Shown piece by piece: positions 12,207 through 60,175 of a stretch of DNA of 64,000 nt; position 1 is the first letter of the stretch, and each line of letters opens with the position of its first letter. The position numbers and the translations under genes were made by a program. The notes under the pieces are model-generated. The model was not told where the DNA came from, did not search any database, and saw nothing but the letters and a program-made list of their open reading frames with translations. Source of the stretch: a virus; the IMG/VR virus record IMGVR_UViG_3300028284_000001, one strand, 5' to 3'.

Positions 12207-12233
12207 TTATATACTAAAATATAATATTGTTTA
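12207..12233 (-). promoter_or_regulatory. Middle-type promoter variant TAAAC-N17-TATAA
   Basis: Matches the motif class found at about 10 sites. Confidence 0.45.
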
Positions 12234-12247
12234 TTTTATTCCGTATG

Positions 12248-12324
12248 TAGTCAAGGTGGGACTTGAACCCACGTGTGACCAGCTACTCTTTCTACAAGGT
12301 ATAAGCTTGAGGAGATACTTGACT
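12248..12324 (-). ncRNA. tRNA-like RNA, UAU (Ile) anticodon loop, no canonical D-arm
   Basis: Acceptor AGTCAAG/CTTGACT, T-arm GTGGG-TTCAAGT-CCCAC, CAAG-CTTATAC-CTTG hairpin; last element of the tRNA array. Confidence 0.7.
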
Positions 12325-12330
12325 ATATAG

Positions 12331-12403
12331 TGATCCCTCTGGGGCTCGAACCCAGGACCCTCACATTAAAAGTGTGATGCTCTTCCAGCTGAGCTAAGAG
12401 ATC
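12331..12403 (-). tRNA. tRNA-Lys(UUU)
   Basis: Cloverleaf; anticodon arm TCACA-CTTTTAA-TGTGA. Confidence 0.95.
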
Positions 12404-12407
12404 TTAG

Positions 12408-12481
12408 TACACCCGATAGGATTCGAACCTATGGCCTACGCATTAGAAGTGCGTTGCTCTATCCAGCTGAGCTACGGGTGC
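12408..12481 (-). tRNA. tRNA-Arg(UCU)
   Basis: Anticodon arm ACGCA-CTTCTAA-TGCGT. Confidence 0.95.
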
Positions 12482-12488
12482 ATATTAG

Positions 12489-12574
12489 TACCGCTGGGCG
12501 GGCTCGAACCGCCACGAGCATTACTGCTCAACAGATTTTAAGTCTGTCGTGTCTACCAATTCCACCACAGCGGC
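12489..12574 (-). tRNA. tRNA-Leu(UAA)
   Basis: Anticodon arm ACAGA-CTTAAAA-TCTGT, long variable arm. Confidence 0.95.
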
Positions 12575-12668
12575 ATTAGTACTAAATATATGATGTCAAT
12601 TTGTTCTTTGTGATCGGGCTTCGTTAAGCCGTAGAACTAGAGTTAAGTTATTTTGTTGTTAGTTACAG

Positions 12669-12713
12669 TGCTAATATACGAATAATATTTGACAATAAAA
12701 AATATGAGGGCAA
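12669..12713 (-). promoter_or_regulatory. Early-type promoter motif (TGCC..TGTCA..CGTATATTAG) upstream of the tRNA array
   Basis: One of four copies of a ~45-bp intergenic motif. Confidence 0.65.
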
Positions 12714-12724
12714 TTATTTGTATA

Positions 12725-13765
12725 TTATTTGATAAGATGTGGTTTTCCTTCTGCTAAACCTGCGTTTGTTACGACATTGTAATCAGTGTTAACATAATAA
12801 TCCGTAGCGTTATTTGCACCTGCATACGAAAACGCCGATCGAATACCATCTGTAAGTCCATTGACGATAAATTTAACTCCACCTTTAAATGGAATTGTAG
12901 TAGATTCACCTTCAACATTTCTTGTCTTTTGGCCATGTGTAACTTTAGTTTCTAAAGATGCACTTCCACGATAACGTTTGTAAAGTCCTGCTGGAGTTTC
13001 TAGGATAGCACCTGGCGATTCTTTTGTGCCGGCTAGTAAAGATCCAACCATTACACAATCAGCTCCAACTGCGAGCGCCTTTGCAATATCTCCTGATGAT
13101 TTAATACCACCATCTGCCATGATAGGAATACCGGCAGAATCTGAAATTTCAAATACAGCCTCAATAGAAGTTACATTTGGAACTCCAAATCCTGTCTTTA
13201 CTCTAGTAGTACAGAGTGAACCTCCTCCAATTCCTACTCGGAGGCCATCGGCTCCCCATGAGATCAGATCTTCCGCTGCTTCCATTGTAGCAATGTTACC
13301 TGCAACTACGTCTGTTACGTTTTCTTCTAGATTTGCTTTAAGTTCTTTTAGTGCTTTTTGCATATTTTCATGGTGTCCATGTGCCACATCAACTACCAAA
13401 ATATTACATCCTACAGCTTCTAGTTCTACCGCGCGATCAAGATAATCGCCAGTTACGCCAATTGCTGCCATAATTGGCAAATGCATTAACGAAGGATCTG
13501 AGTTTCTAAATGCATCTAATTTTCTTACTTGAGCTACTTGATCTTCTATAGACATAAACCTGTGAATACATCCAACGCCACCTAGTTCCATAAGAGTTGC
13601 TGCCATTTCATATTCAGTTACAGTGTCCATACATGAACCTACAATTGGAATATCTATTGACCAGTTCCTAGTGACTGGGACCGAAAGATTAATATTTTGC
13701 CTAGTCTTAACTGCTGACAAATTGGGGATAAGTTGAATATCGTCGTAAGTAAGTGCTTGATGCAT
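12725..13765 (-). CDS. IMP dehydrogenase/GMP reductase family protein lacking CBS domains
   Basis: LTYDDI, MDTVTE, DVAHGH, GIGGGSLCTTR (catalytic Cys), ADGGI, YRGSAS. Confidence 0.9.
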   Translation of the reverse strand: MHQALTYDDIQLIPNLSAVKTRQNINLSVPVTRNWSIDIPIVGSCMDTVTEYEMAATLMELGGVGCIHRFMSIEDQVAQVRKLDAFRNSDPSLMHLPIMAAIGVTGDYLDRAVELEAVGCNILVVDVAHGHHENMQKALKELKANLEENVTDVVAGNIATMEAAEDLISWGADGLRVGIGGGSLCTTRVKTGFGVPNVTSIEAVFEISDSAGIPIMADGGIKSSGDIAKALAVGADCVMVGSLLAGTKESPGAILETPAGLYKRYRGSASLETKVTHGQKTRNVEGESTTIPFKGGVKFIVNGLTDGIRSAFSYAGANNATDYYVNTDYNVVTNAGLAEGKPHLIK

Positions 13766-13792: not shown

Positions 13793-13820
13793 TTATACTA
13801 TAGGATGTGTGAAGAGTTTC
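13793..13820 (-). promoter_or_regulatory. Middle-type promoter GAAAC-N18-TATAA
   Basis: Upstream of the IMPDH/GMPR gene. Confidence 0.6.
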
Positions 13821-13856
13821 AGTTAATCTAATATTTTAATTTGATTAAATTGATTG

Positions 13857-13928
13857 TAGCCCGTAGGGGAATCGAACCCCTCTTACCAGGATGAAAACCT
13901 GGCGTCCTAGCCGATAGACGAACGGGCC
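13857..13928 (-). tRNA. tRNA-Glu(UUC)
   Basis: Anticodon arm CCAGG-TTTTCAT-CCTGG. Confidence 0.95.
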
Positions 13929-13982
13929 GTTACTTGACTGGCAGTCAATTATTATACTGCCAGCATTTTTATTGTTTCAATG

Positions 13983-14062: not shown

Positions 14063-14665
14063 TTATTTTACGACGTTAGCCGCAATGATTGCTTTACCTC
14101 TACGAATTCTATTCTTAATTGTTTGTAAAGGTAAATCGTATTTATCAGCAATATCTTCATACTTCATATTGTTTAAAAGCCTATCTTCTAAGATGCCCTT
14201 ATACATTGGTTTTAAAGTATTGATATTATGTAAAACTGATTCGTATTGATTCATGATGTAATTATCTTCATCAATCCAATCTTGTTCTGATTTATATTCC
14301 ATCTCGATTAAAAGATCTTTAGCAGAAGTTTTAGATAAGTATCTTTCTGTATTGATACCATAATCTTTCATTGCATCAATAGATCTTTTCTTATTTCTTT
14401 GACGTATCCAACCTAAGCATTCGTTAAATGCAATTCTGTAAAGCCATGTAGTAATTTGATATTGTGGATCAAACTGATCTACCTTGGTCCATAGCTTAGT
14501 TAATGTGTTAGTTAGAATATCATCAGTTGCTTCATTGTCTTTTACTACATTATAGATATAAGACCTAAGACCTGGCTTAATTCTGATATAAAGAGCTTTG
14601 TAATCTTGCTCTGATTTAGTTGAGATGTAGTTTTCTGTTAGTTCGCGATAGGTTACTTTTGACAT
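14063..14665 (-). CDS. ECF-type sigma-70 factor
   Basis: Region 2 (DDIL..TL.KLW..VDQFD..TTWLYRIAFN) and region 4 HTH (MKYEDIA..YDLPLQTIKNRIRRG). Confidence 0.9.
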   Translation of the reverse strand: MSKVTYRELTENYISTKSEQDYKALYIRIKPGLRSYIYNVVKDNEATDDILTNTLTKLWTKVDQFDPQYQITTWLYRIAFNECLGWIRQRNKKRSIDAMKDYGINTERYLSKTSAKDLLIEMEYKSEQDWIDEDNYIMNQYESVLHNINTLKPMYKGILEDRLLNNMKYEDIADKYDLPLQTIKNRIRRGKAIIAANVVK

Positions 14666-14701: not shown

Positions 14702-14745
14702 TACTAATATACGAAAATTATTTGACATAAAAAAATGTTTTGGCA
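14702..14745 (-). promoter_or_regulatory. Early-type promoter motif upstream of the ECF sigma gene
   Basis: tactaatatacgaaaattatttgacataaaaaaatgttttggca, near-identical to 37202-37245. Confidence 0.7.
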
Positions 14746-14818
14746 TTTATTTTGTAATTAGTTTGTCTGTTAGTAGTATTATTACATGCTTTCTAACAAA
14801 CTTACATTTTTTTGCCAT

Positions 14819-15043
14819 TTATCTTTCTAAGATTACAAATTCACCAAAGGCTTTATCAAATACGGATATCAGGTGTTCGTAATCGCCTTCCATCATTTCA
14901 TTAATGATATTTGCGCCCGCGTCTTTCCAACCTAATTGCTTAGCAAACCTTTTTGCGTATGCCATTAATGCGTATGCATTTCCATCAGGACCTGTAAGAT
15001 CTATAATAATTGGGCCGGTGTGTTTTTGTTTTTCTCTAATCAT
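14819..15043 (-). CDS. Hypothetical phage protein
   Basis: IDLTGPDGNAYAL...GDYEHL..FD; has its own early motif. Confidence 0.75.
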   Translation of the reverse strand: MIREKQKHTGPIIIDLTGPDGNAYALMAYAKRFAKQLGWKDAGANIINEMMEGDYEHLISVFDKAFGEFVILER

Positions 15044-15068: not shown

Positions 15069-15112
15069 TACTAATATACGAAAAAAAACTGACATAAAAA
15101 AGTATTATGGCA
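15069..15112 (-). promoter_or_regulatory. Early-type promoter motif
   Basis: tactaatatacg...tgaca...tggca. Confidence 0.65.
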
Positions 15113-15138
15113 GTTTTTTTGTAAAAGTTATTAACAAT

Positions 15139-15658: not shown

Positions 15659-16195
15659 TTAAGCTACTATAAATTTAATATTGTAATTATCCCAAAGTTC
15701 ACCAGTTAATGATAGTTCATTTACTCCGCCTTGGGCATTTTGTATTCTTTTGTCATCTGATATGTCTACAAAAAGATAAAGTACAAAATCATAGTGTGTA
15801 GCATAGATCAATGATTGACCAATACCAGATCTAAGATCCGATCCTCTTTTACCTTTTTTAAATTCAATGGCAATTTTAATACCATTCATTTCAACTGTCA
15901 TATCTGGTCTATTTCTAGTTCCCATGAAGAGGATGTGTGATACTGTAGTATTCACATCGCCTTCCCAGTTGATTGAAGATTTTACGATTTCTTTAGCTTT
16001 TTCTTTGTTTTCCTCACCTTCAGATACTATATAATCTGTTAAACCTCTTACAAGATGTGGATATATGAATTGCTTAATCTGATCTTCAGATTTCTTTTTG
16101 TAATTTAATGTACCAAAAATATCCTCATGCGTGATAGCTTCAGAAATTAAATCTAAAAATTCTATTCTCTTTTGAGACTTACTTGCTTGTTTCAT
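15659..16195 (-). CDS. PD-(D/E)xK nuclease-fold protein
   Basis: RPDM...IAIEFKK...GIGQSLIY. Confidence 0.6.
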   Translation of the reverse strand: MKQASKSQKRIEFLDLISEAITHEDIFGTLNYKKKSEDQIKQFIYPHLVRGLTDYIVSEGEENKEKAKEIVKSSINWEGDVNTTVSHILFMGTRNRPDMTVEMNGIKIAIEFKKGKRGSDLRSGIGQSLIYATHYDFVLYLFVDISDDKRIQNAQGGVNELSLTGELWDNYNIKFIVA

Positions 16196-16688
16196 TTGTT
16201 GCTGTTTCTAACTCAGGTTCAACCGTCTCAGCTGAACTTAATTGTTGTTCTAGTTCTGCTAACTCCTTATGAGTAGTTGAAATCTGTGAATTTAATTCTG
16301 CTAAGCTAGTCATTGCAATTGAAACTGCTTCTCCAATATTAGTTAACATAATAACGAATTTTCTAGCTGCTTCTACTCCAGTTCCTTCTACGTTTAAAAG
16401 TGCTTGATAAAGAGCATTTAATTCGTGACCTCTTAAGTTAATTACAGTTTCTTCTGCTTCTGATACTAATAATTCTTTATTCTGTAACTTTAATTGGTCA
16501 TGTAAAGATACTATTACAGCAGCATTATTTGTTTTCCATGTATATCCCTTATTAAGGTGATCCATTATAGTTTTTACCTGCTTTCTATCATCTAACTTGA
16601 CTGTATATGTTTCTGTTGCAGCCCTTGTTTGTAATTCGTCAGCTTTTGCTTGTAAAGCTTCTCTTTGAGTTTCTAGTGATTTGCCCAT
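16179..16688 (-). CDS. Hypothetical coiled-coil protein
   Basis: Long ORF in operon; heptad-like ends. Confidence 0.7.
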   Translation of the reverse strand: MGKSLETQREALQAKADELQTRAATETYTVKLDDRKQVKTIMDHLNKGYTWKTNNAAVIVSLHDQLKLQNKELLVSEAEETVINLRGHELNALYQALLNVEGTGVEAARKFVIMLTNIGEAVSIAMTSLAELNSQISTTHKELAELEQQLSSAETVEPELETATNETSK

Positions 16689-16722
16689 GTTTGTTATTTT
16701 AGTTTAATTATTTATCTTGTTT

Positions 16723-17196
16723 TTAAAAGTCCTCGTTTCTAACTCTTAAGTCGTAATCTTTGAAGTGTTTAAACTGCTCATCGTCAGTAGTCATCCTTCT
16801 CATAATGGAATCATTTACATCATTCCTGTATTCTAATCTTTCGATTCTAGTAATTCTAGGTGGATCTAAATAAATTACCATGCATTTATCTCTATATTCT
16901 TTTGGTAAAACATCTAGCCCATCTTTTGACATTATCATTACATCTGCCTGTTCAAATTCTTCTTTAGTAAGTCCATAATACCAGTTGTTGAAAATCATAA
17001 ACTCTAACATCTCACCGGACTCAATAGTTTCTTTAAATTGATCTTCTGTCATAAAATGATAATCAACGCCATCGACTTCGTTTTTTCTTGGCAATCGCGT
17101 TGTACAACTAATACCAGGTTTAAAATTCTTAGCAATAAGTCTATTCTTTAAAAAATCCTTTCCAGCTGCTGCTTTACCTACTAGTATTAATTTCAT
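16723..17196 (-). CDS. gmk: Guanylate kinase-like protein
   Basis: GKAAAGKD P-loop, TTRLPRKNEVDGVDYHF, WYYG. Confidence 0.85.
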   Translation of the reverse strand: MKLILVGKAAAGKDFLKNRLIAKNFKPGISCTTRLPRKNEVDGVDYHFMTEDQFKETIESGEMLEFMIFNNWYYGLTKEEFEQADVMIMSKDGLDVLPKEYRDKCMVIYLDPPRITRIERLEYRNDVNDSIMRRMTTDDEQFKHFKDYDLRVRNEDF

Positions 17197-17201
17197 ATTT
17201 A

Positions 17202-17837
17202 TTATACGGTTGTTTTGGTTTTTGTTTTTATTTGATCTTTCCTTAAGTCTCTTACCACGTCTTTTCGGACTGTTTCTAAATATTGCTCTCTTTTTTTATT
17301 AGACACAAATGGCACTGACCAGAATTGCTTAGTCTTAAGCCATAATGATAATCGCCACCCAAAGACAAATGTAAATACTCCCATTACTAATCTTAATTTA
17401 GGCGAGTTTAAATAGAGTGTTTTAACTGGCAATGCTGGTGCTCCGTGTGTAATATATGTTCTTACTTTTTTATCACTTAAGAATGGTTTAGGGTAAGCGT
17501 ACGGTCCTATAACTGGCACGAATTGATATGCATACCCTGGGGTTAATACCTCATCAAAAAATATCTCCATTCTTGGTGTTAATCTAAACCACCAAACCGG
17601 TGAGATAAAGTAAATACGATCTGCCCATTTGACTAGCTCTTTATATTTTTCAATAAGATCTGTTCTTGGTCTAGCAAAACTATCACTGTATAATTCAATA
17701 CATTCTACTTCGTTTAAATAACCTGGAGTATTTAAAAGAGTTTTCTTAAGAGTCCTATAAATACCGTTATAGCAGAACGATCCCTCATCTGGATGTCCAA
17801 TAACTATTAGGTTTTGCATTCTTTCCTTCTTACTCAT
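17202..17837 (-). CDS. Flavodoxin-fold NAD(P)H-dependent oxidoreductase
   Basis: GHP..SF, WADRIYFISPVWW, FFDEVLTPGYAY. Confidence 0.85.
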   Translation of the reverse strand: MSKKERMQNLIVIGHPDEGSFCYNGIYRTLKKTLLNTPGYLNEVECIELYSDSFARPRTDLIEKYKELVKWADRIYFISPVWWFRLTPRMEIFFDEVLTPGYAYQFVPVIGPYAYPKPFLSDKKVRTYITHGAPALPVKTLYLNSPKLRLVMGVFTFVFGWRLSLWLKTKQFWSVPFVSNKKREQYLETVRKDVVRDLRKDQIKTKTKTTV

Positions 17838-17888: not shown

Positions 17889-18716
17889 TTAGCTTCGATC
17901 ACCATATAAAAAATCTTTTAAATCATCTCTACTGGTTGGGACATTATCCCATTTCTTATCATACCAAAATGTTCTGCCATTTCTATCTTTTCTCTTTGAC
18001 ATTTCAGCATTGCCATAACATAACATGAAGCGCTCTTGGATAGCCTCGTCTCCAAATGGATTATCCCAATCCTTTATGTTTCCACCGCCCTTAGCATACG
18101 CCAGAAGTGGTATATCTCGGCATAAATCTAGTAGTTTAGGATATTTAGCGAATTGCATGCCAGCTGGTAAGAATGGATCTACATCTCCGGCTCTGAAAAT
18201 GATTTCAGCTCTTAGGTAATTACCAATACCATTAAAATATTTCTGATCCATTAACATTTCATAGAGTGGTTTCTTAAGCTTAGTCAAGTTAGTCATGACA
18301 TTATCCCAAAATGCTTTGTAATCTGTTGTTGGGTCTGGTCCTCTGTTTTCTGACCATGCTAAACCTTGTTTCCATTTACCAAAACGTCTGACATCTACAA
18401 ATGATAATGTAGTATCTGCATCAGAATAAAATTTAAGGTGAGAATGTTTCAACTCTTGTCCAGTATGAGTTAGCTTAAAATGACCGGACATACCCATTGT
18501 GATTCTAACTGTAACAAATTGATCTGAATAGTTATCTAAGAAATAGAGTACCATTTCTTTTCCTTTTGATTTAGCTTTAATCTTAAACTTTGTAAAAGGA
18601 ATATTTAGGTCTTCACACTTATGGACTGGATTCTTTTCTACTTTTGTAAAAGTGATCCCCTCTGATACTTGATTAACATAGTCTGATGTGAACTTGAGTT
18701 CCGCTAACTCTGGCAT
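17889..18716 (-). CDS. nei: Fpg/Nei DNA glycosylase, NEIL1-like (zincless finger)
   Basis: N-terminal MPEL, MGMSG, FVDVRRFG, H2TH DQKYFNGIGNYLRAEI, DRNGRTFW without a Zn-finger. Confidence 0.9.
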   Translation of the reverse strand: MPELAELKFTSDYVNQVSEGITFTKVEKNPVHKCEDLNIPFTKFKIKAKSKGKEMVLYFLDNYSDQFVTVRITMGMSGHFKLTHTGQELKHSHLKFYSDADTTLSFVDVRRFGKWKQGLAWSENRGPDPTTDYKAFWDNVMTNLTKLKKPLYEMLMDQKYFNGIGNYLRAEIIFRAGDVDPFLPAGMQFAKYPKLLDLCRDIPLLAYAKGGGNIKDWDNPFGDEAIQERFMLCYGNAEMSKRKDRNGRTFWYDKKWDNVPTSRDDLKDFLYGDRS

Positions 18717-18734: not shown

Positions 18735-18761
18735 TTATATCTTATCATGTGTAATTGTTTC
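18735..18761 (-). promoter_or_regulatory. Middle-type promoter GAAAC-N17-TATAA
   Basis: Upstream of the nei operon. Confidence 0.65.
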
Positions 18762-19236: not shown

Positions 19237-19437
19237 TTATGTTTCTGAAGTGGTATTAGTTGAACACCATACTGGAGGTGGTGTCGTATCTGGGGGAGAA
19301 TAGTAGGGGTTAGGACCCGGGGCATATATTGGATATGACGGTGGATTGTAAACATCGTCTTTAAGTAAAACTACTGCTTCTTCAGCTGTAATTTGCTTTT
19401 TGTCTAATAGTTTCTGTACGATACTTGCCTTTGTCAT
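19237..19437 (-). CDS. Small Pro-rich hypothetical protein
   Basis: LLDKKQITAEEAVVLL plus Pro-rich tail; behind a middle motif. Confidence 0.7.
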   Translation of the reverse strand: MTKASIVQKLLDKKQITAEEAVVLLKDDVYNPPSYPIYAPGPNPYYSPPDTTPPPVWCSTNTTSET

Positions 19438-19455: not shown

Positions 19456-19482
19456 TTATACCTGGTATTTAACTAAAGTTTC
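19456..19482 (-). promoter_or_regulatory. Middle-type promoter GAAAC-N17-TATAA
   Basis: Exact motif. Confidence 0.6.
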
Positions 19483-19926: not shown

Positions 19927-20247
19927 TTAATTTCCCATTTGATAATCAGCAGGTGGCAATTCATCTAATAAACTTCCAGGTGCTGTAACATTCTTAACAA
20001 GTCCACTAAGCTCTGCTTTAATTTCCTTTACTTCATACTTAGCATATTCAAATTCACCCTTAATATATTCATTAAGTGCTTTACCTTGAGAATCTGCTGT
20101 ATTAAATTTATCCCATGTATTTTGATCTACTGCTTCATAGACGTATGTTGCCCATTTAAAAACCACTGTTAGGGTTTTATCTGTAACGTTATATGTTGCT
20201 GAATTAATAGTAGAACTCGTGTAGTGTGATGTTGTGCTAGTTATCAT
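19927..20247 (-). CDS. KTSC-domain protein
   Basis: SSTINSATYN...LTVVF...YVYEAV...ADSQGKALNEYIK. Confidence 0.8.
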   Translation of the reverse strand: MITSTTSHYTSSTINSATYNVTDKTLTVVFKWATYVYEAVDQNTWDKFNTADSQGKALNEYIKGEFEYAKYEVKEIKAELSGLVKNVTAPGSLLDELPPADYQMGN

Positions 20248-20263: not shown

Positions 20264-21298
20264 TTATATGCGTTTTCTAATAATTGTTTTCGGAATAACT
20301 TGTTTTGTAACAACTATCGGTTCATTTTTTTGTTCAGTTGTATTATATGAACTTATCACTAAATCGTAATATTTGCATGATGCAAATTTATCTGCAGGTC
20401 TAAGTTGAGCAGTAGGTGCGTTTTCTGGATTACGTGATACTGCTTTATAGAATGGTCCTATTTCAGTATCTTCTAAAGTTGCTGCTTTTAATACTCCTGC
20501 ATTATGAAATATAGCATTTTTATCCCAGTAGTATATCGTAGAAGTTCCCCATGTAAAATCAAAATCTTTTGTGATTGGAGTTTTATATCCGGCTTTCCAT
20601 AAATTCCAAAGCACAGCCCACATATCTGCACACCATATTTGTAATGTGTTCCATTCCGGATTGGATTGTTTTTTAATATTAATCAGGGGTCTCATTTCTA
20701 AATATAGAGATTCACTATCACGATATACGTTTTGCCAGTACTTTGTTGTTATACCTGGTTTAATTAAATATTGAGCTCCTCCTGCTTCGCTATCTCTAGA
20801 TTTAACTTCATTAGAATCAATATTTACAATTTCGCACATTTTAAAGAATAAATCTTCTCCTCTATCAATTATATAGTCCGAAGAAATATAACTTGCGGTA
20901 TCTGATACAAAACATGTTTTATCTAGATTTAATTTATCGTGTAAAGTTAAAGGTCTTGTTAACGCAATATCACAATCATGATAAAAGAATGTGGATTGTT
21001 CTAAATACGGATGTATGTTCCAATGCTTCTCTAGAATATGAGGTCTAATTGAAGAAATATAAGATGGGGATTTTCTAGTATCTGTATAATATGCAAAGAG
21101 AACTCCTTTTTTAGTCCACTCTTCATCTACGCTTCTATATCTTTCGTGTATCTTATTATTTTGAATAGCTCCGACTATATGTACTTTGCTTAGATCGACA
21201 TTACCATTTTTTTCAAATGATAATAACATTGCAGCAATTTGCCATGAATAATAATAATTTGCAGGTTGACATGATATGTAATATATGTCCGGTGTCAT
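20264..21298 (-). CDS. GT-A fold glycosyltransferase-like protein
   Basis: YYSWQ, SIRPH, FFYHDCD (DxD), GGAQY, WCADMWA, FHNAG. Confidence 0.6.
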   Translation of the reverse strand: MTPDIYYISCQPANYYYSWQIAAMLLSFEKNGNVDLSKVHIVGAIQNNKIHERYRSVDEEWTKKGVLFAYYTDTRKSPSYISSIRPHILEKHWNIHPYLEQSTFFYHDCDIALTRPLTLHDKLNLDKTCFVSDTASYISSDYIIDRGEDLFFKMCEIVNIDSNEVKSRDSEAGGAQYLIKPGITTKYWQNVYRDSESLYLEMRPLINIKKQSNPEWNTLQIWCADMWAVLWNLWKAGYKTPITKDFDFTWGTSTIYYWDKNAIFHNAGVLKAATLEDTEIGPFYKAVSRNPENAPTAQLRPADKFASCKYYDLVISSYNTTEQKNEPIVVTKQVIPKTIIRKRI

Positions 21299-21303: not shown

Positions 21304-24300
21304 TTATCTACCTAAATTAGAACCAGTTTTAACTTTAATACCTTGTGTAACTATTGCGTTCTTAAGTGAATTAACAGCTGCTACAACATCATCACCTCCG
21401 CCACCTCTGCTACGTCCAGTAAGTCCATCAACAACACCGCCAACCATACCACCAACTATCTGTCCTGGTACTGCAGCAATCTTTCCTAGAATTCCTTGTT
21501 GAGCTGCACCTTGTTCTTGTACAGTACTCTTAAACTCTGCTAGCATAGTTGCTAAATTATTTAATGCCTCTTCTAATGAAGAACCCATGCTTTCTAAAAT
21601 ATCTTCTGGAGAGTCGCCACCTTCAGCTAATACTGCTAATGCTTCAAACATTGCACGAGCTTCGGTAAGTTTTTCTAACTCCATTGAATTAATACCTGCA
21701 GAAATCTGTGGGAACGCAACTGCAGTCGCAGTCATGTTTGTTCCGATAGCATTCCAAAGTTCAGTTTGAGCGTTATATCCAGCGATTGGTCTTAGTAAGC
21801 CAACTCTACCAACAAACATACCTTTAAAGCTATTTAAGTTTTCTAAGTTAGCACTATTAGTAGCACCAATAATATCTTTAGCACCTTGACCCATTTTTTC
21901 GTATGAGTTCCCGACAGCAACAAATAATTTTGTTCTGGTATGAAGAGTCTCATCTTCAACATTTATCATGCTACCACCATAAACCGATGTGAATGCTGCT
22001 AATTGTTCAGCCTGTGCGTTATTAATAGAACCTACAATCATTGGAATAGCTATTGCCATTCTTAAATATGAAAGTGTTAATCCTTGTAAGAACTTAGTTT
22101 TAGATTCAAATAATTCTGCTGGAGATTCTCCACCAAAGATAGATGCAAATGCTTTTGCTTTATCTACAGTAAATGATGCAATAGAACCTACAATTAATGG
22201 GATAGCAACTCCTAGTTTTTCATAGGTCTTTCCTATTTGATCGATTAAACGAGTTTTAAGTGTTAGTAATCCTGCATCTTCTCCACCTGCATCAGTTAGA
22301 GATTTAATCATAGCAGTTACTTTATCTTTAACTTCTGTTGCATCAGAAATTCCTGAAGTAATTTTAGATACATGACTTACTGTATCTGCTAAAGAAGAAT
22401 AAGGTTCTGCTAACGAGTTTGCAACCCATACTCCTTTTTCGAAATCGTTTGAACTAAACCATGAAGTTTTTGCAGCTTCTCCTTTTCCTACTTCTTCAAA
22501 TACTCCAGCTAAACCTATAATAAGCGCTTTTGTATTTGCAGCTATCTTTTTAATTAATCCACCAACATTACCTATTGCTTTATATCCTGTTGCGTTACCA
22601 TCCTTATCGTAACCTGTTGGGAACTTTAAGTTTGCCATGTTCTGAACACCATTTGCTAATTCATAAAGAGGTGCTCCCATTTTCTTAACAACCTTAATAC
22701 CCTTTTCATAAGAAGAACTAGTAAACCATGAACTACCTTGTGCTGCTTCAGATTCTCCAACCTCTGCAAATGCAGAACTTAAACCTGTTACTATTAATTT
22801 AGTATTGGCAATTAAGTTTGGTACTGCAGATGTAAGATTAATAGTTTCATATCCTGTTGCATTACCTTCTTTATCATATCCTGTTGGGAATTTAAGTTCA
22901 GCCATTGATTGAACACCCCTTGCGATACTAGTTAAAGCACCTCCCATACCAAGTACTGATGAAATACCATCTGCTACTGCAGATTGACTACCACCACCAA
23001 AGATAGAACTAAATAAACCTTTCTTACCACCCGGGTACATTTTACCAATTTTACCAAACGTATCAGATAGTGCAAATGTTATTGATGCAACATTGTCACC
23101 TAATGATTTAAGATCTGCTGTTTCAGCTATCTTTTGGAATTGTTTAATACCGAATGCTACACTAGTTAATGCCACCCCTGCCATAATTAATGCAGGTGCA
23201 CCAACATACATTGCTGCAAGTTGTAAAGGTCCTAATGAGAATGAATTTGCGATTGCCTCAAACATAACTTCCATGTTTGTTTTCGGTCTACCGCCACCGA
23301 TTCCCATAAACCCTTTTGTCTTTTGTCCAGAATCTCCTAATACTCCTGTTCTTTTAGTTAATTGGTCAAAGTTTAATTTCTTTAAAATTAACATTCCAGC
23401 TCCTATTAATATAAGAGCTCCACCTGCTAATATCATTGCTCCAGCACCAAGTGCTATAAATGGAGCTGCAGCGCCTGCAAGTCCAAATGCGAGAGCTAAA
23501 CCACCTACTAGAGCCATGGTCTGTCCTATAAATTCCCAGCCATTATCTCCTAATGCATTTCCTAATATTTTAATTGCCACTGCATTGATTATTAATGCAA
23601 TACCAACAAGTATCATTGCTCCAGCACCAAGTGCAATAAAAGTTGCTTGAGTTCCTGCTAAATAAAATGCTGCTCCAATTAGACCTATTAATAATAAGGC
23701 TCCTAATGATTTTACAGCTTCTTCGCCAGAAATATTGCCAATAACTTTACTAAATATTAATAATGATAATCCTAGTACTAAAATTGATAGAGATGCCCAA
23801 AGCATTGCTTGCGCTCCTTTCTTTATGAACTTATCCATAACTCCAATTAGACCAAATGTTAAGCCAACTGCACCAACAACTAATGCTATTTCAAATAGTA
23901 CCGCCATTGGAGGTGATATTATATTAAATAGAGCTAATGCAATCGCTAAACCTAAGATAGCTCCTGCTACAAATAACAGCCCTTTACCTCCGTCTTCCAT
24001 GGAGTCTACAACTCCCATTTTATCTAATAAGAAGAAAACAGCTCCTATTGCTAGAATTGCCATTCCAGCAAACATCGCTCCCTTTAATGCAAATGGTGCA
24101 ATGAAAGAAGTTAATGCTAAAGCTACCATTACTGATAGTATACCTAAACCTGTCATTACTAAAGTGTCTGCTGTTTCTTTAGCTTTGTCCCCACCTAGTG
24201 CTCCAGCTATTCTTAAAATAAGCATCATTGCTGGAACTATTATTAATACTGCAAGTAAACCTTTAAGTGCTGGCATTATGAATAATGATGTTAATGCTAA

Positions 24301-24867: not shown

Positions 24868-24946
24868 GGATTAACTATGAAGGTTTTTTTTAAAGTATAC
24901 AAGAACACCACAATAAGTGGTGTCCCTGTTACTATATTATATATCC

Positions 24947-46646: not shown

Positions 46647-46655
46647 TTATATATC
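46647..46655 (-). promoter_or_regulatory. Late promoter motif GATATATAA (portal)
   Basis: ttatatatc upstream of 46626. Confidence 0.7.
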
Positions 46656-47713: not shown

Positions 47714-48091
47714 TTATATGTTAAACATTCCGGAATCCCCGTCACTATTAGAAGTATTTATTCTATCCATTGACATGGTATTCTTATATTTGGTTGGATG
47801 TATCTTATTCCATCCTTTAGCATATCCTCTTTTTGCTATCTCCGTAAAGTATGCAAATGCATTGGTATACTTAGGATTAAAGTTACGCCAGTATTTTAAA
47901 AGGTCTAATATAGCAAATTGTAAGCAGTCATTTCTATCATCACTACTAACATACACTAATTTTCTAATTGCCCTCTCAGCTAAAAGAATTAACATCTTTT
48001 CAGCATCTCTCGTTAACTTATCATCCTCTAAAGATTGTACAATTTGATTGTAAAGATCTTTATTATTGAGGTAATTCTTTTTTCTTGGCAC
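47714..48091 (-). CDS. gp55: Late-transcription sigma factor
   Basis: YLNNKDLY, LKYWRNFNP..TNAFAYFT; GTG start. Confidence 0.85.
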   Translation of the reverse strand: MPRKKNYLNNKDLYNQIVQSLEDDKLTRDAEKMLILLAERAIRKLVYVSSDDRNDCLQFAILDLLKYWRNFNPKYTNAFAYFTEIAKRGYAKGWNKIHPTKYKNTMSMDRINTSNSDGDSGMFNI

Positions 48092-48114: not shown

Positions 48115-48141
48115 TTATATGCAAAAAAGCCCGAATGTTTC
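48115..48141 (-). promoter_or_regulatory. Middle-type promoter GAAAC-N17-TATAA driving gp55
   Basis: Exact motif, overlapping a terminator hairpin. Confidence 0.65.
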
Positions 48142-48157
48142 GATACGGGCTTTTTTG
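48123..48157. terminator. Bidirectional-looking intrinsic terminator
   Basis: aaaaaagcccg-N12-cgggcttttttt. Confidence 0.8.
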
Positions 48158-48179
48158 TGTTATGTGGATTGCAGTATGA

Positions 48180-49367: not shown

Positions 49368-49411
49368 CTTGGTTGTTTTATTTTCTATATTAGTATATAT
49401 CAGTTAAATTT

Positions 49412-50485
49412 TTAATCTATTTTACCTCCGAATGGATAGTCTCTTCCTGTAACATTATATTGATCTCCAAGCATAGAATTATCATCTTCTGATTTAGCGT
49501 CTGTTGACGACGGGCCGTTCTTAATTGTAAACATTCTATTAGACTGTTTTCTTCTTTTAGAAACTCTTTTAATTTGAGATTCTGTTGTTTGTTCTTGACC
49601 TAAAGTACCTATAACATCTGGATGTGAACAATCTTTACCATCTTCTACTTTTATCCATTCAGTTCCATTAGACTCCCATTTTGAAGGATGGTAGCTATCA
49701 TAATATACATTAGGTGTCATGGCAGGATCTAAGAATCCATTAGGATTTCCATAGTCGCCACATGTAGCATTAGCATACGTAGTTCTAGTGAATTTTCTAT
49801 AAGTATCTTCTTCAAAATCAAATGAGGGTACGAATGAATTAATTTCTAAACTAAAAGTAATTTTATGATTTGCTTTATCATCAAATGAATATTCAACAGG
49901 TCTTTCTTGTGAATAATCATCAGGCATCATATACTCAGATGAAATTCTATAAGTTCCTTCTTCTAAATGACCAGCATCTATATTATAGAAATTAGCCTTA
50001 TACATTTTCTTTACAATAGATTCAGTAACTTTAAATAGATCTAATTGGCTTGATACTATTATTTCAATATCAACTCCTATTACACATGGAATCATTTCAA
50101 ATTCGGCTACATAGCCTTCCATTAAGCCATCTTCGTTCATCATCGAATATTGACCCATGTTTCTTTTATTAACTAGCTTACCAGGATCTACAGCAAACGA
50201 TGTTAGGTTTACAATACCTCTTGGTACTTTATCGTAATTACCATCTGCAAACTGACCATCAGGATCACATCCAGGGCCATTTACATTTGAAAATAGAAAA
50301 GCATCTTTTAAAAAGTTTTCATCTCCAGATACTGCATAAAAGAAGGGTACATCAACAACAACTCTCTCGTCATTGCTAATTTGTCTAAAAAAACTCAGTT
50401 TACTATTGAGGTCTGCTAAGAGTCCAACAACAATGTGTCTGATAACTGAATCGTCTTTATTAAATTTTAAATTATATGTTGCCAT
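49412..50485 (-). CDS. Tail sheath stabiliser/completion protein (gp15-like)
   Basis: IRHIVVGLL..LN, VPFFY, VPRG, D..K.VNK. Confidence 0.65.
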   Translation of the reverse strand: MATYNLKFNKDDSVIRHIVVGLLADLNSKLSFFRQISNDERVVVDVPFFYAVSGDENFLKDAFLFSNVNGPGCDPDGQFADGNYDKVPRGIVNLTSFAVDPGKLVNKRNMGQYSMMNEDGLMEGYVAEFEMIPCVIGVDIEIIVSSQLDLFKVTESIVKKMYKANFYNIDAGHLEEGTYRISSEYMMPDDYSQERPVEYSFDDKANHKITFSLEINSFVPSFDFEEDTYRKFTRTTYANATCGDYGNPNGFLDPAMTPNVYYDSYHPSKWESNGTEWIKVEDGKDCSHPDVIGTLGQEQTTESQIKRVSKRRKQSNRMFTIKNGPSSTDAKSEDDNSMLGDQYNVTGRDYPFGGKID

Positions 50486-50503
50486 AGAGTATATATCACT
50501 CTA

Positions 50504-55659: not shown

Positions 55660-55955
55660 TCGAATGGATTTTGTATTATTTTAAAAGCCTCTTTGCCAGG
55701 CTCGTCACTTGTTTGTTCGCATAAACCCAATGTAACTAATTCTTTTGCAGATTCTAATATTTTGTTATGATCTGATTCTGGAAATCTATAAGTTTTTAAT
55801 GCGTGGAATGTAAAGCTACCTTTATATCTGTCTGGGTTTCTATTACATAATTTTACTTCAGCTTGTAAAACATCTAATGCGGTTGGATAATCTGGTAAAT
55901 CTTTTTCTATCCCTAGGATATACTTGATTGGCAGCTTATCTTTATTCAACTTCAC
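55656..55955 (-). CDS. Hypothetical protein
   Basis: Coupled to uvsX and the oxygenase gene. Confidence 0.7.
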   Translation of the reverse strand: MKLNKDKLPIKYILGIEKDLPDYPTALDVLQAEVKLCNRNPDRYKGSFTFHALKTYRFPESDHNKILESAKELVTLGLCEQTSDEPGKEAFKIIQNPFE

Positions 55956-57057
55956 CTAGTTCTATTAGCTCGTCTATGTCAAGTTCTCTGTGTTCCGTAC
56001 TGTAATTAAATAGAGGCTGAATTTTCTTTTCAATTTTTTGTAGGATTTCTTGAGTAAAGACTTTATCTGTAAAGAATTCTGAGTTTGATACAGTTTCATC
56101 AAGGTGTTTACAAATCCAACCCCTTGCAGTAGCCTTAGGTGTTTTTGTTCCGTCCTTTTCAACTAGACCTTTTGCAATACCAATATCTTCCCAGTCAATA
56201 TATTGTTCTAGGCCGACAAATCTATTCATACCTTCTGTAAAGTGTAAATGGAATTTAATTGGATGTGGTTTTGCAAATCTGTTTTTATTTGGTTTTGCAG
56301 TTACAATAATACCAGTCTTTTCACCGCCCTCTTTAAGTTGTGCCTTACCTAAGAATAGAACAATTGATGCTGCATATTCTGGTCCAGTTCCTCCACCTGC
56401 TACTGCCTGTGAAATAAATGATTGTGTTTGGTATGTGTGATTTGTAAATAGAAATGGAATCTTTAAATCAGCCAGAGGCGTCATAATAATTCTAAAGATA
56501 GACTTTAGGATCTTAGCCCTAGTCATATCTGATTTTTCAGAACCTGTTTTAGCATCATCAATTTCTTTATTAGTTGCTAAGTTACCTGCAGAATCTAAGA
56601 TAATCATTACTTTAGGTGTTTGACCGCCAGCTCTTTTTACCTCTTGCATTTTAGCAGTAATTGTAGTTACAGATTGACGAAAGTCTTGTACTGTATTAAC
56701 TGGTTGGTAATTTACTTTAGTAGTATCAATGCCAAACTTCTTCATTAATTCTCTATCGACTGCTGCTTCTGAATCATAAAAGATAACACTATAACCCATG
56801 TCTATAGCACGAACAATGGAGTTTAATATTAAATATGTTTTTCCTGTTCCTGATGGTCCTGCGATTGAACAAGATCTGTTGTTTGGCCAACCATTAAATA
56901 AGGATCCGCTTACACATGCGTTTAAGTGGTAGTTACCCGTATCAATCCATTCTGTAACCTCACTAAAATTAGAATGTTCCATAACGGAACCTAACGGATT
57001 AAGGTCCGCTAATTCTTTATTAATGTCATCGAAACTAAATTCTTTCTTTTTTGCCAT
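55942..57057 (-). CDS. uvsX: RecA-like recombinase
   Basis: IDTG, AGPSGTGKT, YDSEAA, LDS.GNL, DMTRAK, NHTY, GGGTG. Confidence 0.95.
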   Translation of the reverse strand: MAKKKEFSFDDINKELADLNPLGSVMEHSNFSEVTEWIDTGNYHLNACVSGSLFNGWPNNRSCSIAGPSGTGKTYLILNSIVRAIDMGYSVIFYDSEAAVDRELMKKFGIDTTKVNYQPVNTVQDFRQSVTTITAKMQEVKRAGGQTPKVMIILDSAGNLATNKEIDDAKTGSEKSDMTRAKILKSIFRIIMTPLADLKIPFLFTNHTYQTQSFISQAVAGGGTGPEYAASIVLFLGKAQLKEGGEKTGIIVTAKPNKNRFAKPHPIKFHLHFTEGMNRFVGLEQYIDWEDIGIAKGLVEKDGTKTPKATARGWICKHLDETVSNSEFFTDKVFTQEILQKIEKKIQPLFNYSTEHRELDIDELIELGEVE

Positions 57058-57077: not shown

Positions 57078-57104
57078 TTATATGGTAAGATGCTATATAG
57101 TTTC
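57078..57104 (-). promoter_or_regulatory. Middle-type promoter GAAAC-N17-TATAA (uvsX operon)
   Basis: Exact motif. Confidence 0.65.
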
Positions 57105-57508: not shown

Positions 57509-57513
57509 GTTGT

Positions 57514-58722
57514 TTAAAATAATGCCGAAGCGTAAATTAAGTTTGTATCTAATGTTTGAAGGCCAATTGCTTTCAATACTCTATTGAGTGGGTCGATCAT
57601 ACACTTTTCAAATTGTGTATCATAGTCAACTTTAGGTGCTATCTCATAAGGATGATCTCCTGGAAGATATGCGTAGACTTCAGAGATTGGTGTTTTACAG
57701 TTATAGATTTTAAGCTTCTCACCGTTACCAATCAGTTTATATTTGTTTTTAAATTTAGCATTGTTATTCAATATGTAATTGTAATAACCAGCTGCCTTTA
57801 CGTTTGCAGGACATTTAAGACCTACTTGGAATTCAATTTGATCGTCAACGATATATTTTTCAATATTATTAGTTCTACGATTAAATGCAATATCATCTAT
57901 GTTTGCTAATTGAAATTCTTTTTTAGACTCTTTCATAAAACTAACTAGCTGTTGCAATTCTTCTGCATTAGGAGTTTGTTGAGATCTAAATAATATTCTA
58001 AGTGCTTCTACTAGTTTCTCTCTAGCGAACTTAGGAGTAGAAGATTGAATTGTATCAAATCCAATAGTCTTTACTTTCTTAAGAGATGGATGCCTATCAG
58101 TAGTTTCTAATTTATCATCCCATGCAATGTTTTGAATATACTTTTTCTTTGACATCCAAATACCATTATAGGCAAGTGACTCTAGTTCAAAGAATAAGAA
58201 GTTATCCGTGTTTCTATCAGCAGCATATTTTTTCATTGTTGCTGTGATATAGTCTTTAAGTCTAAATGCATAGAATGCTAAAATAAACTCATCAATAGGT
58301 AGAGCTTTTTCTTCGTCATCCCAAATAATAGATTCATAAAGATCTTGGAATTGTACGTAACAAGAATCAGTATCAATATAGATTACTGCAGGCTTTTCAA
58401 TCTTACCCTTTACTTTAATACCGAATTGCTGATGTACTTTAGTATCTTTATGCCAAAATTCATTAACGTATTTGTTAAGAATAGATTCTGAATAAAGAAT
58501 AGCATTCTTGCCTTGTTTAGTAATGGATTCTGCAATATCTATATTAAAAAAGTGAAACCACTTATTACCGAATGCACCGTAAATAGAGTTAAGAGTTAAT
58601 TTTACAGCTTGTTCATAAGCAGTATATTTAGCAGAAAGCTGCTTGTAATGTTTTACAAGCAGCCCCGCCTCTTCTTTACTTAGTTGATCAGTTGGTTTAT
58701 TTTCTAATGCAGTTATATCCAT
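57514..58722 (-). CDS. gp43B: B-family DNA polymerase, C-terminal subunit
   Basis: KLTLNSIYGAFGN (motif B), YIDTDS (motif C), KKKY, SSTP. Confidence 0.9.
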   Translation of the reverse strand: MDITALENKPTDQLSKEEAGLLVKHYKQLSAKYTAYEQAVKLTLNSIYGAFGNKWFHFFNIDIAESITKQGKNAILYSESILNKYVNEFWHKDTKVHQQFGIKVKGKIEKPAVIYIDTDSCYVQFQDLYESIIWDDEEKALPIDEFILAFYAFRLKDYITATMKKYAADRNTDNFLFFELESLAYNGIWMSKKKYIQNIAWDDKLETTDRHPSLKKVKTIGFDTIQSSTPKFAREKLVEALRILFRSQQTPNAEELQQLVSFMKESKKEFQLANIDDIAFNRRTNNIEKYIVDDQIEFQVGLKCPANVKAAGYYNYILNNNAKFKNKYKLIGNGEKLKIYNCKTPISEVYAYLPGDHPYEIAPKVDYDTQFEKCMIDPLNRVLKAIGLQTLDTNLIYASALF

Positions 58723-58725
58723 CTA

Positions 58726-59469
58726 TTACGCTGTTTGACAAGTTGATACAGTAAGCAATGTTGCTGATTCAGTAGATTCAAATACTATTTTAGAATCTGA
58801 AATATGAACTGTTTGTTCTTCTTTGTCTAACAGGTTTAAATACTTTTTGTAAACTGTTACTGCTCCACTTCCATTTGATTCTGGATTAATTGTAGCATTA
58901 AACGATTTACCGCTAACAGCAACTCCTGTGCCATTTGCTTTTACACTAAACGTTTCGTCTTTGTCAAGTCCAAATAAGTTCTTAACTTTATTAATGGTAT
59001 GTGTGTCCATTGTAAAACTAAACTTAGTGTCGTCTGTTGCGAAAATAGCTGCTTGCTGATCTTCAGTTAAGTCTTTAAATCCTAGTGAAGGCTCTGAACA
59101 AGATAGGGTAATTTCTAACTCATCGTTAAAGATTCTTAATGTGGAAGCAACAAATTCAGTTTCAGTCTCTAGAAACTCAAGTTCACCTTTAATAGCATCA
59201 TGGTCAAAGTGCTTAATAGCATCAATAACTTTTGATCCTTCAAAGAAGGCTATTTTCATTTCCTTATCAGTGTCCGGGAAGGTGCTGATTTGGAAGATTT
59301 TATCACATGGAATGTTATGTGATTTTACTGCATCTCTCTGTGGTAGGTATACCGCAGAATTTATTTGTCCATTGTTTATTTTCATATAGACAAACGAGTC
59401 GATAAGCTTTACGCGATTAATAAATGCTGTTAGCTCATGCTGGTCAATTCGATCAATTTGTAATTTCAT
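58726..59469 (-). CDS. Probable DNA sliding clamp (gp45-like)
   Basis: 247 aa, two-lobed alpha/beta pattern, next to the polymerase subunit; clamp loader present. Confidence 0.55.
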   Translation of the reverse strand: MKLQIDRIDQHELTAFINRVKLIDSFVYMKINNGQINSAVYLPQRDAVKSHNIPCDKIFQISTFPDTDKEMKIAFFEGSKVIDAIKHFDHDAIKGELEFLETETEFVASTLRIFNDELEITLSCSEPSLGFKDLTEDQQAAIFATDDTKFSFTMDTHTINKVKNLFGLDKDETFSVKANGTGVAVSGKSFNATINPESNGSGAVTVYKKYLNLLDKEEQTVHISDSKIVFESTESATLLTVSTCQTA

Positions 59470-59492
59470 CTAAATATATTTTTGTTTGATAG

Positions 59493-59519
59493 TTATACTT
59501 GTTTTTACTAGTTAGTTTC
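59493..59519 (-). promoter_or_regulatory. Middle-type promoter GAAAC-N17-TATAA (clamp-gp43B)
   Basis: Exact motif. Confidence 0.65.
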
Positions 59520-59522
59520 ATT

Positions 59523-59555
59523 AAAAAAGCCCAGAATCCTAGAAACCTGGGCTTT
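59523..59555 (-). terminator. Intrinsic terminator after the OMP gene
   Basis: aaaaaagcccag-N12-ctgggcttt. Confidence 0.8.
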
Positions 59556-59574
59556 AAACCAAATTAGATTTAGC

Positions 59575-59991
59575 TTAGAATTTTAAGCCGAACCCAATTT
59601 GAAGGTTAGTAGTTTCAGCCCCTAAATCGTAAACGATTTTTGGATCTAAAAACATTGCTCCTTTATGGAACTCAAACATTCTCCCTACACCTATTGAAGC
59701 TTGATCGAAATCAAAATCATTAAGTGCTACATATCCAAAGAATCCTTTGTGGAAATATCTTCCTTCTAGACCTAAGACCATGTCTTCAGTTGAATCTGCT
59801 TGCGATACATTCATTCCAACCATATAGTTGTCAGCGAATGCGTAGCCGATCATTGGTTGGATTGATAAATCAGTCCAAGCCGTGTTAGTAATATCGCCAG
59901 TACCTACGTACCAGTCTCCTTTTGCGTTTTGCGCGTTAGCTCCTATTGTTGTTAATACAACTAGTGCTATTGATAAAATAATATTTTTCAT
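59575..59991 (-). CDS. Small outer-membrane beta-barrel protein (Bacteroidota type)
   Basis: Signal peptide ending ANAQ, KGDWYVG, alternating strands, C-terminal IGFGLKF. Confidence 0.8.
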   Translation of the reverse strand: MKNIILSIALVVLTTIGANAQNAKGDWYVGTGDITNTAWTDLSIQPMIGYAFADNYMVGMNVSQADSTEDMVLGLEGRYFHKGFFGYVALNDFDFDQASIGVGRMFEFHKGAMFLDPKIVYDLGAETTNLQIGFGLKF

Positions 59992-60148
59992 AATAAATTA
60001 ATTTGGTTTGTAAAAAACTTCTATTCAGTCTGCAGTTTGCAGATATCTAGGATTAGATATAGAAGTAACTGCTGTTTTTATATTTAAGCAGTATGTGGTT
60101 AATATTGTTGTTAACGAGTAATCGTTCATTTCTTTTGTTTGTGGGTCT

Positions 60149-60175
60149 TTATACAGAGTATATGTGCTTTGTTCC
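60149..60175 (-). promoter_or_regulatory. Middle-type promoter variant GGAAC-N17-TATAA
   Basis: Between the nrdA terminator and the OMP gene. Confidence 0.5.

Follow-up and report, generated by a model that had tools for sequence, protein, structure and literature searches.

A putative three-step sigma factor relay in an uncultured T4-like phage of Bacteroidota, with a phage ECF sigma factor as candidate reader of the middle promoters

It has already been established that phages can redirect the core RNA polymerase of their host by successive sigma factors, as in SPO1, phiEco32 and the late phase of T4. In the Bacillus phage SPO1 the host sigma-A is followed by gp28 and then by gp33/gp34. The programme of T4 relies on sigma-70 for the early genes, on AsiA and MotA for the middle genes and on gp55, gp33 and gp45 for the late ones, whose promoter is TATAAATA (PMC2988020). 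Phage-encoded sigma factors acting on the host core, for both middle and late genes, are also those of phage 7-11 and of phiEco32, where gp36 works with gp79 (PMC12276001, PMC8948821); gp36 is a distant sigma homologue, which reads AATGTA near −11 for both groups of genes and needs gp79 (PMC12276001). By contrast, the middle phase of T4-like phages outside the enterobacterial group is so far unclear, because most of them have neither MotA nor AsiA. Here we describe a stretch of 64,000 nucleotides (nt), the IMG/VR record IMGVR_UViG_3300028284_000001 (hereafter the window), which comes from a large uncultured T4-like myovirus of a marine clade with a Bacteroidota host. We propose, with a probability of roughly 0.7, that this phage, which would have no RNA polymerase of its own, switches on its genes by a three-step sigma relay on the host core polymerase.

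In the first step of the proposed relay, the host sigma-A holoenzyme would read an early box, TTTT-N19/20-TAtaTT(A/T)(G/A), expressing a few small genes, an exonuclease, a tRNA cluster and an extracytoplasmic function (ECF) sigma factor encoded by the phage. The latter, having no anti-sigma and not regulating itself, would then read T-G-A-A-A-C-(A/T)(A/T)T followed, after 16 nt, by R-TATAA; transcription would start about 6 nt past TATAA, often directly at an ATG and thus on leaderless messages. The predicted output of this second step consists of replication, recombination, repair and nucleotide-metabolism genes, some tRNAs, the probable sliding clamp, the clamp loader and gp55. Finally gp55, a sigma factor made of region 2 only, would read the single-block motif GATATATAA before the structural genes.

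Such a relay would share with SPO1 the successive replacement of sigma factors on the host core, each sigma gene lying under the promoters of the previous tier; however, the phage lineage and the sigma factors are unrelated, and the last tier is here the T4-type gp55. With T4 the phage has in common the T4-type replication and morphogenesis genes, a gp55-type late sigma and an AT-rich, −10-only late promoter before the structural genes, as well as the expression of gp55 and of the clamp-loading genes ahead of the late genes, which is read here from the promoter classes. It differs from T4 in the absence of AsiA and MotA, in a middle class that is bipartite, with −35 and −10 elements of ECF type and a dedicated phage ECF sigma, in the late motif (GATATATAA instead of TATAAATA) and in the Bacteroidota host, with −33/−7 early promoters and no Shine-Dalgarno sequences. 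As for phiEco32, the proposal is that an early-made phage protein of the sigma-70 family redirects the host core to a phage-specific promoter class, but here this protein is a clear ECF member paired with a GAAAC −35 element, and the late genes would use a second sigma, gp55. What differs here is the combination: a T4-type phage without MotA and AsiA, in which a genuine ECF sigma would serve the bipartite middle class and gp55 the late genes, and a Bacteroidota host. Our literature searches found no paper describing such a cascade; Iyer et al. 2021 reported that jumbo phages of the same group encode sigma factors and gp33, with nothing further on a relay of this kind, and Bellas et al. 2020 (PMC7468147) make no mention of sigma factors or promoters.

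The window has 33.8% G+C and carries nearly all of its genes on the minus strand; the alignment of their upstream regions sorts them into three promoter groups (Table 2). The middle one, [G/T]AAAC-N17/18-TATAA, had been noticed in the initial annotation, which listed ten sites, one of them a GGAAC-N17-TATAA variant: all their coordinates proved exact, with the sites read on the minus strand, and a further strict site, 24 nt before tRNA-Glu, had been overlooked. The motif is strongly biased, since the strict pattern occurs ten times on the minus strand and never on the plus strand, against 1.55 expected (1.55 ± 1.17 matches per strand in 300 dinucleotide-preserving shuffles, none of which exceeded 6). 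The spacing is likewise defined, with eight sites at N17 and two at N18, while every other spacing from 8 to 29 gave 0–3. All ten strict sites are intergenic, with the next start codon or tRNA 10–32 nt away, and when up to one mismatch was allowed the gene strand showed 14 sites in the non-coding 8% of the window versus 9 in the coding 92% (other strand: none and two, respectively). The downstream genes also agree with the annotation, according to which the motif precedes genes of nucleotide metabolism, repair and replication, and gp55: they include GMP reductase, an Fpg/Nei glycosylase, gp44, gp55, UvsX, the probable sliding clamp with the C-terminal half of the polymerase, and a SET-domain protein. 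When all 5-mer pairs with spacings of 10–23 were enumerated without bias in the non-coding DNA of the window and of 22 relatives (131 kb), only the early box and GAAAC-N17-TATAA came out, besides tRNA-internal pairs; the latter motif scored 60, versus 1.7 at other spacings and 0 on the opposite strand. There being only two bipartite classes, no fourth bipartite class is left for a spare factor.

To follow the motif outside the window we used 60 IMG/VR loci (983 kb) encoding sigma orthologues of 55–89% identity. Their gene strand holds 237 sites at N17 and 53 at N18, compared to 4–19 at other spacings, and the opposite strand a single N17 site. A 256-kb relative, G002, which is complete and has terminal repeats, carries 30 N17 sites on its main gene strand; the other strand has three, each of these 21–24 nt ahead of a plus-strand gene. 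The logo of 173 unique N17 sites adds a T (0.59) before [G/T]AAAC, A/T-rich positions after it, an R before TATAA and a pyrimidine-A step 5–6 nt past TATAA, which is the likely start site. At 38 of these sites (~22%) an ATG falls exactly on the predicted start A, 10 nt after the first T of TATAA, as it does in the window at 12211, 17206 and 35730; a second peak of start codons lies 12–14 nt further downstream. About a fifth of the middle-class messages would thus be leaderless, a predicted rate far above the 5.5% of leaderless mRNAs of Flavobacterium (PMC9723704). By its spacing, strand bias and recurrence, GAAAC-N17-TATAA is a conserved promoter class.

The position of the two phage sigma genes relative to these classes is equally conserved. 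A middle site precedes the gp55 gene in the window, as it does in 78 of 78 related loci, and overlaps an intrinsic terminator (48115–48165) whose hairpin loop is the GAAAC itself; among 39 sequence variants from the 78 loci the hairpin stem covaries, its substitutions compensating each other, whereas GAAAC, TATAA and the GTG start do not change. The ECF sigma gene lies behind an early-type box in the window, and an early octamer is found 30–47 nt from the sigma start in 38 of 42 distinct orthologue upstream regions (TATATTAG in 18, TATATTTA in 12, TATATTTG in 6); in none of the 42 variants do the 200 nt upstream contain a middle or late motif. Other genes keep their class on the orthologues of the complete relative, the sigma, exonuclease and 74-amino-acid genes being early and gp44, the probable clamp and Fpg middle. 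The initial annotation was thus right in describing three separate promoter classes, with the ECF sigma gene behind the early one and gp55 behind the middle one. Its further claim, that the phage employs its own ECF sigma for middle transcription, is supported: all that the sequence allows to be checked agrees with it, including the classes, the wiring and the lack of MotA and AsiA in the complete relative, while the link between sigma and motif is one that we infer.

A different way of using the same sites would be that of T4, with sigma-A staying on the polymerase and an unrecognised, MotA-like phage activator binding GAAAC at −35. The MotA box of T4, at −30 and combined with a sigma-70 −10 element, is a precedent for it, and many genes of the phage have no known function. 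However, AsiA and MotA (PF09010, PF09114) gave no match at E ≤ 1 in the complete relative or in two partial ones, the middle −10 lacks the TTTG part of the −7 box of the Bacteroidota sigma-A, the −35 element corresponds exactly to the ECF type both in its sequence and in its 16/17-nt spacing, and a dedicated, conserved ECF sigma is present; this explanation is therefore very unlikely. As for a polymerase of the phage itself, no homologue of a T7-type or of a beta-subunit/multisubunit enzyme was found in the complete relative, the T7-type negative being weak, as the control search found nothing anywhere.

The ECF-type sigma gene encodes 200 amino acids, with Pfam matches to Sigma70_r2 at residues 25–91 (E 2e-10) and to Sigma70_r4_2 at residues 148–192, that is, regions 2 and 4 only, without region 1.1 or 3. 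The protein scores 62.9 bits with the ECF superfamily model TIGR02937 (cut-off 42.9) and stays below the subfamily cut-offs, with 75.2 versus 126.4 bits for TIGR02985 (Bacteroides ECF) and 65.7 versus 209 for the SigW equivalog. Its nearest NCBIfam subfamilies are Sig70_bacteroi1 and then, second-best, SigW; SigW and SigE are its best full-length relatives in the PDB, SigW again being second-best. Neither a co-transcribed anti-sigma partner nor autoregulation, both of which are usual though not universal among ECF sigmas, is apparent: the gene has tRNA-Gln after it and an early box of its own before it. The best 120 homologues are all phage orthologues with at least 74% identity, and the whole family comprises more than 1,100 clusters at 90% identity. 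The complete relative has a single ECF-type sigma; its gp55 is seen only as a weak region-2 signal.

That this ECF sigma reads the GAAAC-N17-TATAA class is well supported and, in our opinion, probable, on account of elimination, of a SigW-like −35 element with ECF spacing, of the contact residues and of the co-occurrence of motif and recognition helix. The elimination is simple: there are three classes and three sigma factors, the early class has to find its reader when no phage protein exists yet, and the late class is gp55-like. The candidate class, with TGAAAC and N16 to R-TATAA, may be compared with the AAC-containing −35 element of ECF promoters, about 16–17 nt from their −10 element. The −35 consensus of SigW is TGAAACxTTT (PMC6713349), and the 16 nt from AAC to the R-TAT core of the middle motif equal the SigW spacing; more in general, Bacillus subtilis SigW and Escherichia coli SigE, both with solved −35 complexes, share with the middle class a −35 element TGAAAC(x)TT about 16 nt from the −10 core (PMC6713349). 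In SigW's sigma-4 domain as crystallised on its −35 element the contacts are made by T168, K170, T171, R172 and R175 (PMC6713349). The corresponding residues of the phage sigma are T, K, N, R and R, so that four of the five are kept and T171 is replaced by Asn; these residues are invariant in 44 distinct orthologues, throughout which the recognition helix reads QT[IV]KNR[IV]xRG, and in the huge phage LR756500. The two systems differ in the −10 element (TATAA in the phage versus CGTA or GTC), in the lack of an anti-sigma gene and of autoregulation in the phage, and in an overall identity of only ~25%.

The co-occurrence was evaluated by counting GAAAC-N17-TATAA in whole records of ten phage genomes, with the reversed pattern as a control (Table 1). 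Enrichment of the motif tracks the T-K-N-R-R helix, with four genomes having it and six not, and the five non-enriched genomes with ECF homologues differ at the R172 and/or R175 positions. No cognate bipartite promoter class emerged in a motif search over 200 kb of LR745206, which has a different helix. It gave only a strong bipartite signal in the non-coding DNA (200001–400000), TTTG-N15-TCGAACC in ~30 copies in 200 kb, which may be tRNA-related.

Table 1. Counts of the middle motif and of its reversed control in ten phage genomes, with the sigma residues at SigW positions 168, 170, 171, 172 and 175.
Genome	Motif	Control	Helix
G001	18	1	T-K-N-R-R
G002	20	2	T-K-N-R-R
G003	8	2	T-K-N-R-R
LR756500	23	3	T-K-N-R-R
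PTm1	2	3	no sigma gene
Lak-A1	2	8	T-K-N-Y-K
LR745206	0	9	T-K-S-Q-N
LR756502	7	5	T-K-S-Q-N
LR756504	6	11	T-K-S-R-Q
LR756501	8	7	T-K-S-Q-K

These counts also bear on the possibility that the middle motif is a true promoter class read by an ECF sigma of the host, with the phage factor acting otherwise, for instance on host promoters. Flavobacteria do have several ECF sigma factors, seven of them in F. psychrophilum (PMC9723704), and the sigma-4 contact residues of the phage protein are generic among ECF sigmas. Nevertheless, PTm1 infects a flavobacterium and has neither the sigma nor the motif, the mapped −10 element of a flavobacterial ECF sigma is CGT and not TATAA (PMC9723704), and the only non-gp55 sigma of the phage would be left without a target, since there are just two bipartite classes. 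We regard a host ECF reader as unlikely.

Several observations weigh against the reading of the middle class by the phage sigma and against the relay built on it. The co-occurrence positives represent only about two independent lineages, and LR756500, among the positive genomes, has four or five sigma-like genes. As to the conserved sigma-4 residues, they fit the motif without singling out the phage protein, being generic for ECF sigmas reading GGAAC/GAAAC. The middle −10 element, R-TATAA in the 173 unique sites, is unusual for ECF sigmas, whose typical −10 has CGT, as has the mapped Flavobacterium ECF motif (PMC9723704); such a −10 is usual in the family but does not define it. The count of a single ECF sigma comes from the complete relative, whose sigma is 61% identical to that of the window. 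In the early boxes the −33 element is TTTT or TTTC, not TTTG, and the −7 octamer is exactly TAnnTTTG in only 6 of 42 variants (TATATTTG). Finally, the assignment of sigma factors to classes, like the order in time, is drawn from sequence.

The early class consists of a box of ~45 nt ending in TTCGTATATTAG, present in four copies ahead of the exonuclease gene, a 74-amino-acid gene, the ECF sigma gene and a tRNA cluster. Its core, TTTT-N19/20-TATATT(A/T)(G/A), has the geometry TTTT-N19/20-TAnnTTnn, which appears to match the arrangement of Bacteroidota and flavobacterial sigma-A promoters, namely −33 TTTG and −7 TAnnTTTG elements 19–21 nt apart (PMC9723704). The host is almost certainly a member of the Bacteroidota (Flavobacteria-type) because of the sorting domains of type IX secretion, the Bacteroidota-phage relatives of the capsid and the A-rich leaders, which lack a Shine-Dalgarno sequence. 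The sorting domains, Por_Secre_tail (with a cohesin domain) and CHU_C, are found above the Pfam cut-offs in two late proteins (1906–2643 and 5123–6796, the latter on the plus strand), and the nearest relatives of the capsid belong to LR756500, an uncultured huge phage (49% identity), to the Prevotella Lak phages and to the Tenacibaculum phage PTm1. There is no close cultured relative at the DNA level, a search of cultured phages having given tRNA matches only.

The assignments could in principle be reversed, with the ECF sigma reading the box before its own gene and the host holoenzyme reading GAAAC-N17-TATAA. Cellular ECF sigma genes are usually found behind their own target promoter, and the box of the window does contain AAAAC and CGTAT. 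In the orthologous boxes, however, the AAAC and the CG, which are 23 nt apart, are not conserved, and the conserved core has sigma-A geometry; moreover, the sigma gene needs another reader first, and the Bacteroidota sigma-A makes no use of a TATAAT-type −10 element (PMC9723704). Such an exchange of readers is highly improbable.

The late class, GATATATAA, is a single block ahead of structural genes, with no −35 partner. Written as GATATATA[ACT], it has 13 gene-strand copies and a single one on the opposite strand, for an expectation of 3.4; the gene-strand copies precede structural or late genes and the sole plus-strand copy precedes plus-strand genes. The T4 late motif TATAAATA is not enriched in the window, with one gene-strand match versus 13 for GATATATAA. 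A late-type GATATATAA was also seen at 63266–63274, between the N-terminal part of the polymerase and nrdB, where a terminator-like hairpin comes next and there is no obvious gene.

The late sigma candidate, a protein of 125 amino acids, is matched at E 1.8e-9 by PHROG 234, the family 'late sigma transcription factor'. In the PDB neither sequence nor profile searches found anything for it, and T4 gp55 was recovered by fold search only: the model (pLDDT 76) has as top Foldseek match T4 gp55 in the gp55-dependent open complex (7d7c_F; probability 1.00, TM 0.66, though E only 6.4e-3), followed by SigE region 2. Loci of this gp55 number in the hundreds in marine viromes. Among its possible partners, no gp33 homologue was found in the small open reading frames (ORFs) tested, and the 247-residue product of 58726–59469 is probably the sliding clamp: sequence searches gave no family for it, but the top Foldseek matches of its model, which is of low confidence (pLDDT 54), are all PCNA or beta clamps.

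As both the middle and the late class end in TATAA, and the site at 46653 overlaps a late promoter, the middle sites might be weak or variant gp55 promoters sharing a common TATAA core. However, late sites need GATATATAA and have no −35 partner, whereas middle sites are variable before R-TATAA and always have GAAAC at N17; moreover, the genes behind the two classes are not the same, and gp55 itself lies behind a middle site in all 78 relatives. The reading of the middle sites as degenerate late promoters is thus very unlikely, and we rejected it.

The coordinates of the promoters and of the two sigma genes are collected in Table 2.

Table 2. Sigma genes and promoter-type sites in the window.
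Feature	Position	Strand	Gene or remark
ECF-type sigma gene, proposed tier 2 (middle) sigma	14063–14665	−	200 amino acids; Pfam, NCBIfam and PDB matches
gp55-type late sigma gene, tier 3	47714–48091	−	125 amino acids, GTG start; PHROG 234 and fold
Early box, TTTT-N19/20-TATATTAG with internal TATGTCA box	14704–14756	−	before ECF sigma gene; −7-like octamer at 14704–14711
Early box	37204–37256	−	before exonuclease gene 35911–37179; G002 orthologue likewise
Early box	15071–15123	−	before 74-amino-acid gene 14819–15043
Early box	12671–12723	−	before tRNA-Leu/Arg/Lys cluster (12330–12574)
Middle promoter, GGAAC variant	60149–60175	−	before 34-amino-acid ORF and 59575–59991
Middle promoter	59493–59519	−	before probable sliding clamp (58726–59469) and polymerase C-terminal half (57514–58722); motif also on G002 orthologue
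Middle promoter	57078–57104	−	before UvsX (55942–57057) and gp41/gp47/gp46 run
Middle promoter	48115–48141	−	before gp55; GAAAC in terminator hairpin loop; in 78/78 relatives
Middle promoter (N18)	38229–38256	−	before clamp loader gp44 (37255–38211)
Middle promoter (TAAAC)	35726–35752	−	before 35292–35720; leaderless spacing
Probable middle promoter, AAAAC variant	20264–20290	−	before 19927–20247
Middle promoter	19456–19482	−	before 66-amino-acid gene 19237–19437
Middle promoter	18735–18761	−	before Fpg/Nei glycosylase (17889–18716)
Probable middle promoter, AAAAC variant	17202–17228	−	before guanylate kinase (16723–17196); leaderless spacing
Possible middle promoter, GAAAC-N18-GATAA (one mismatch)	16712–16739	−	before 16179–16688
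Middle promoter	13952–13978	−	before tRNA-Glu (13856–13928)
Middle promoter (N18)	13793–13820	−	before GMP reductase (12725–13765)
Middle promoter (TAAAC)	12207–12233	−	before SET-domain gene (11743–12201); leaderless spacing
Late promoter GATATATAC	50489–50497	−	before 49412–50485 (weak gp15-like match)
Late promoter	49393–49401	−	before 48180–49367
Late promoter	46647–46655	−	before portal gene 45028–46626
Late promoter	44989–44997	−	before 44644–44985
Late promoter	44606–44614	−	before head protease 42402–44582
Late promoter	40822–40830	−	before 38763–40781
Late promoter	34658–34666	−	before 32661–34625
Late promoter	32609–32617	−	before 31936–32592 and terminase 30100–31932
Late promoter	30074–30082	−	before tail sheath 27103–30042
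Late promoter	27086–27094	−	before tail tube 26507–27064
Late promoter	24937–24945	−	before 21304–24867
Late promoter	9869–9877	−	before 9471–9839
Back-to-back late promoters	5026–5055	minus 5026–5034, plus 5047–5055	drive exported-protein genes

The remaining content of the window is that of a T4-like phage. Family searches identified NrdA, NrdB, UvsX, a gp41-type helicase, gp46, gp47 and the clamp loader gp44 and, on the structural side, portal, head protease, major capsid protein, terminase, tail sheath and tail tube, in addition to the gp55-type protein. The family-B DNA polymerase is split into an N-terminal part (63301–63999), which runs off the window, and a C-terminal part (57514–58722), with nrdB, nrdA, small ORFs and the probable sliding clamp between them. 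A Mom-family protein (PF25680, 196 bits) at 7210–7905 suggests a DNA-modification function. The SET-domain protein and GMP reductase (11743–13765), each under a middle promoter, are both unusual auxiliary genes for a T4-like phage. On the plus strand, a conserved gene of 162 amino acids with no family (38272–38760) is divergent from gp44 and has a 44%-identical orthologue at the same position in the complete relative.

To the question of the middle phase in T4-like phages that do not belong to the enterobacterial group, this clade gives a readable answer: a phage ECF sigma with a promoter class predictable genome-wide from the sequence. It is likely that the clade, which is abundant and still uncultured, has swapped the sigma appropriation by MotA and AsiA for a free-standing ECF sigma, which would pair a −35 element of SigW/SigE type, TGAAAC, with an unusual −10 element, TATAA, start a large share of leaderless messages and switch on gp55, and that at least one distant huge phage, LR756500, has the same pair of sigma and promoter. 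If true, the three-sigma relay would merge the logic of SPO1 with that of T4. The phage sigma is also a test case for the use of a TATAA −10 element by ECF sigmas, and one sigma with one compact promoter is a candidate for an orthogonal expression switch in the Bacteroidota, a group with few genetic tools. Since the clade is large, its sigma clusters numbering more than 1,100 and its gp55 loci hundreds, the three motifs would allow the annotation of temporal classes in many genomes of uncultured phages.

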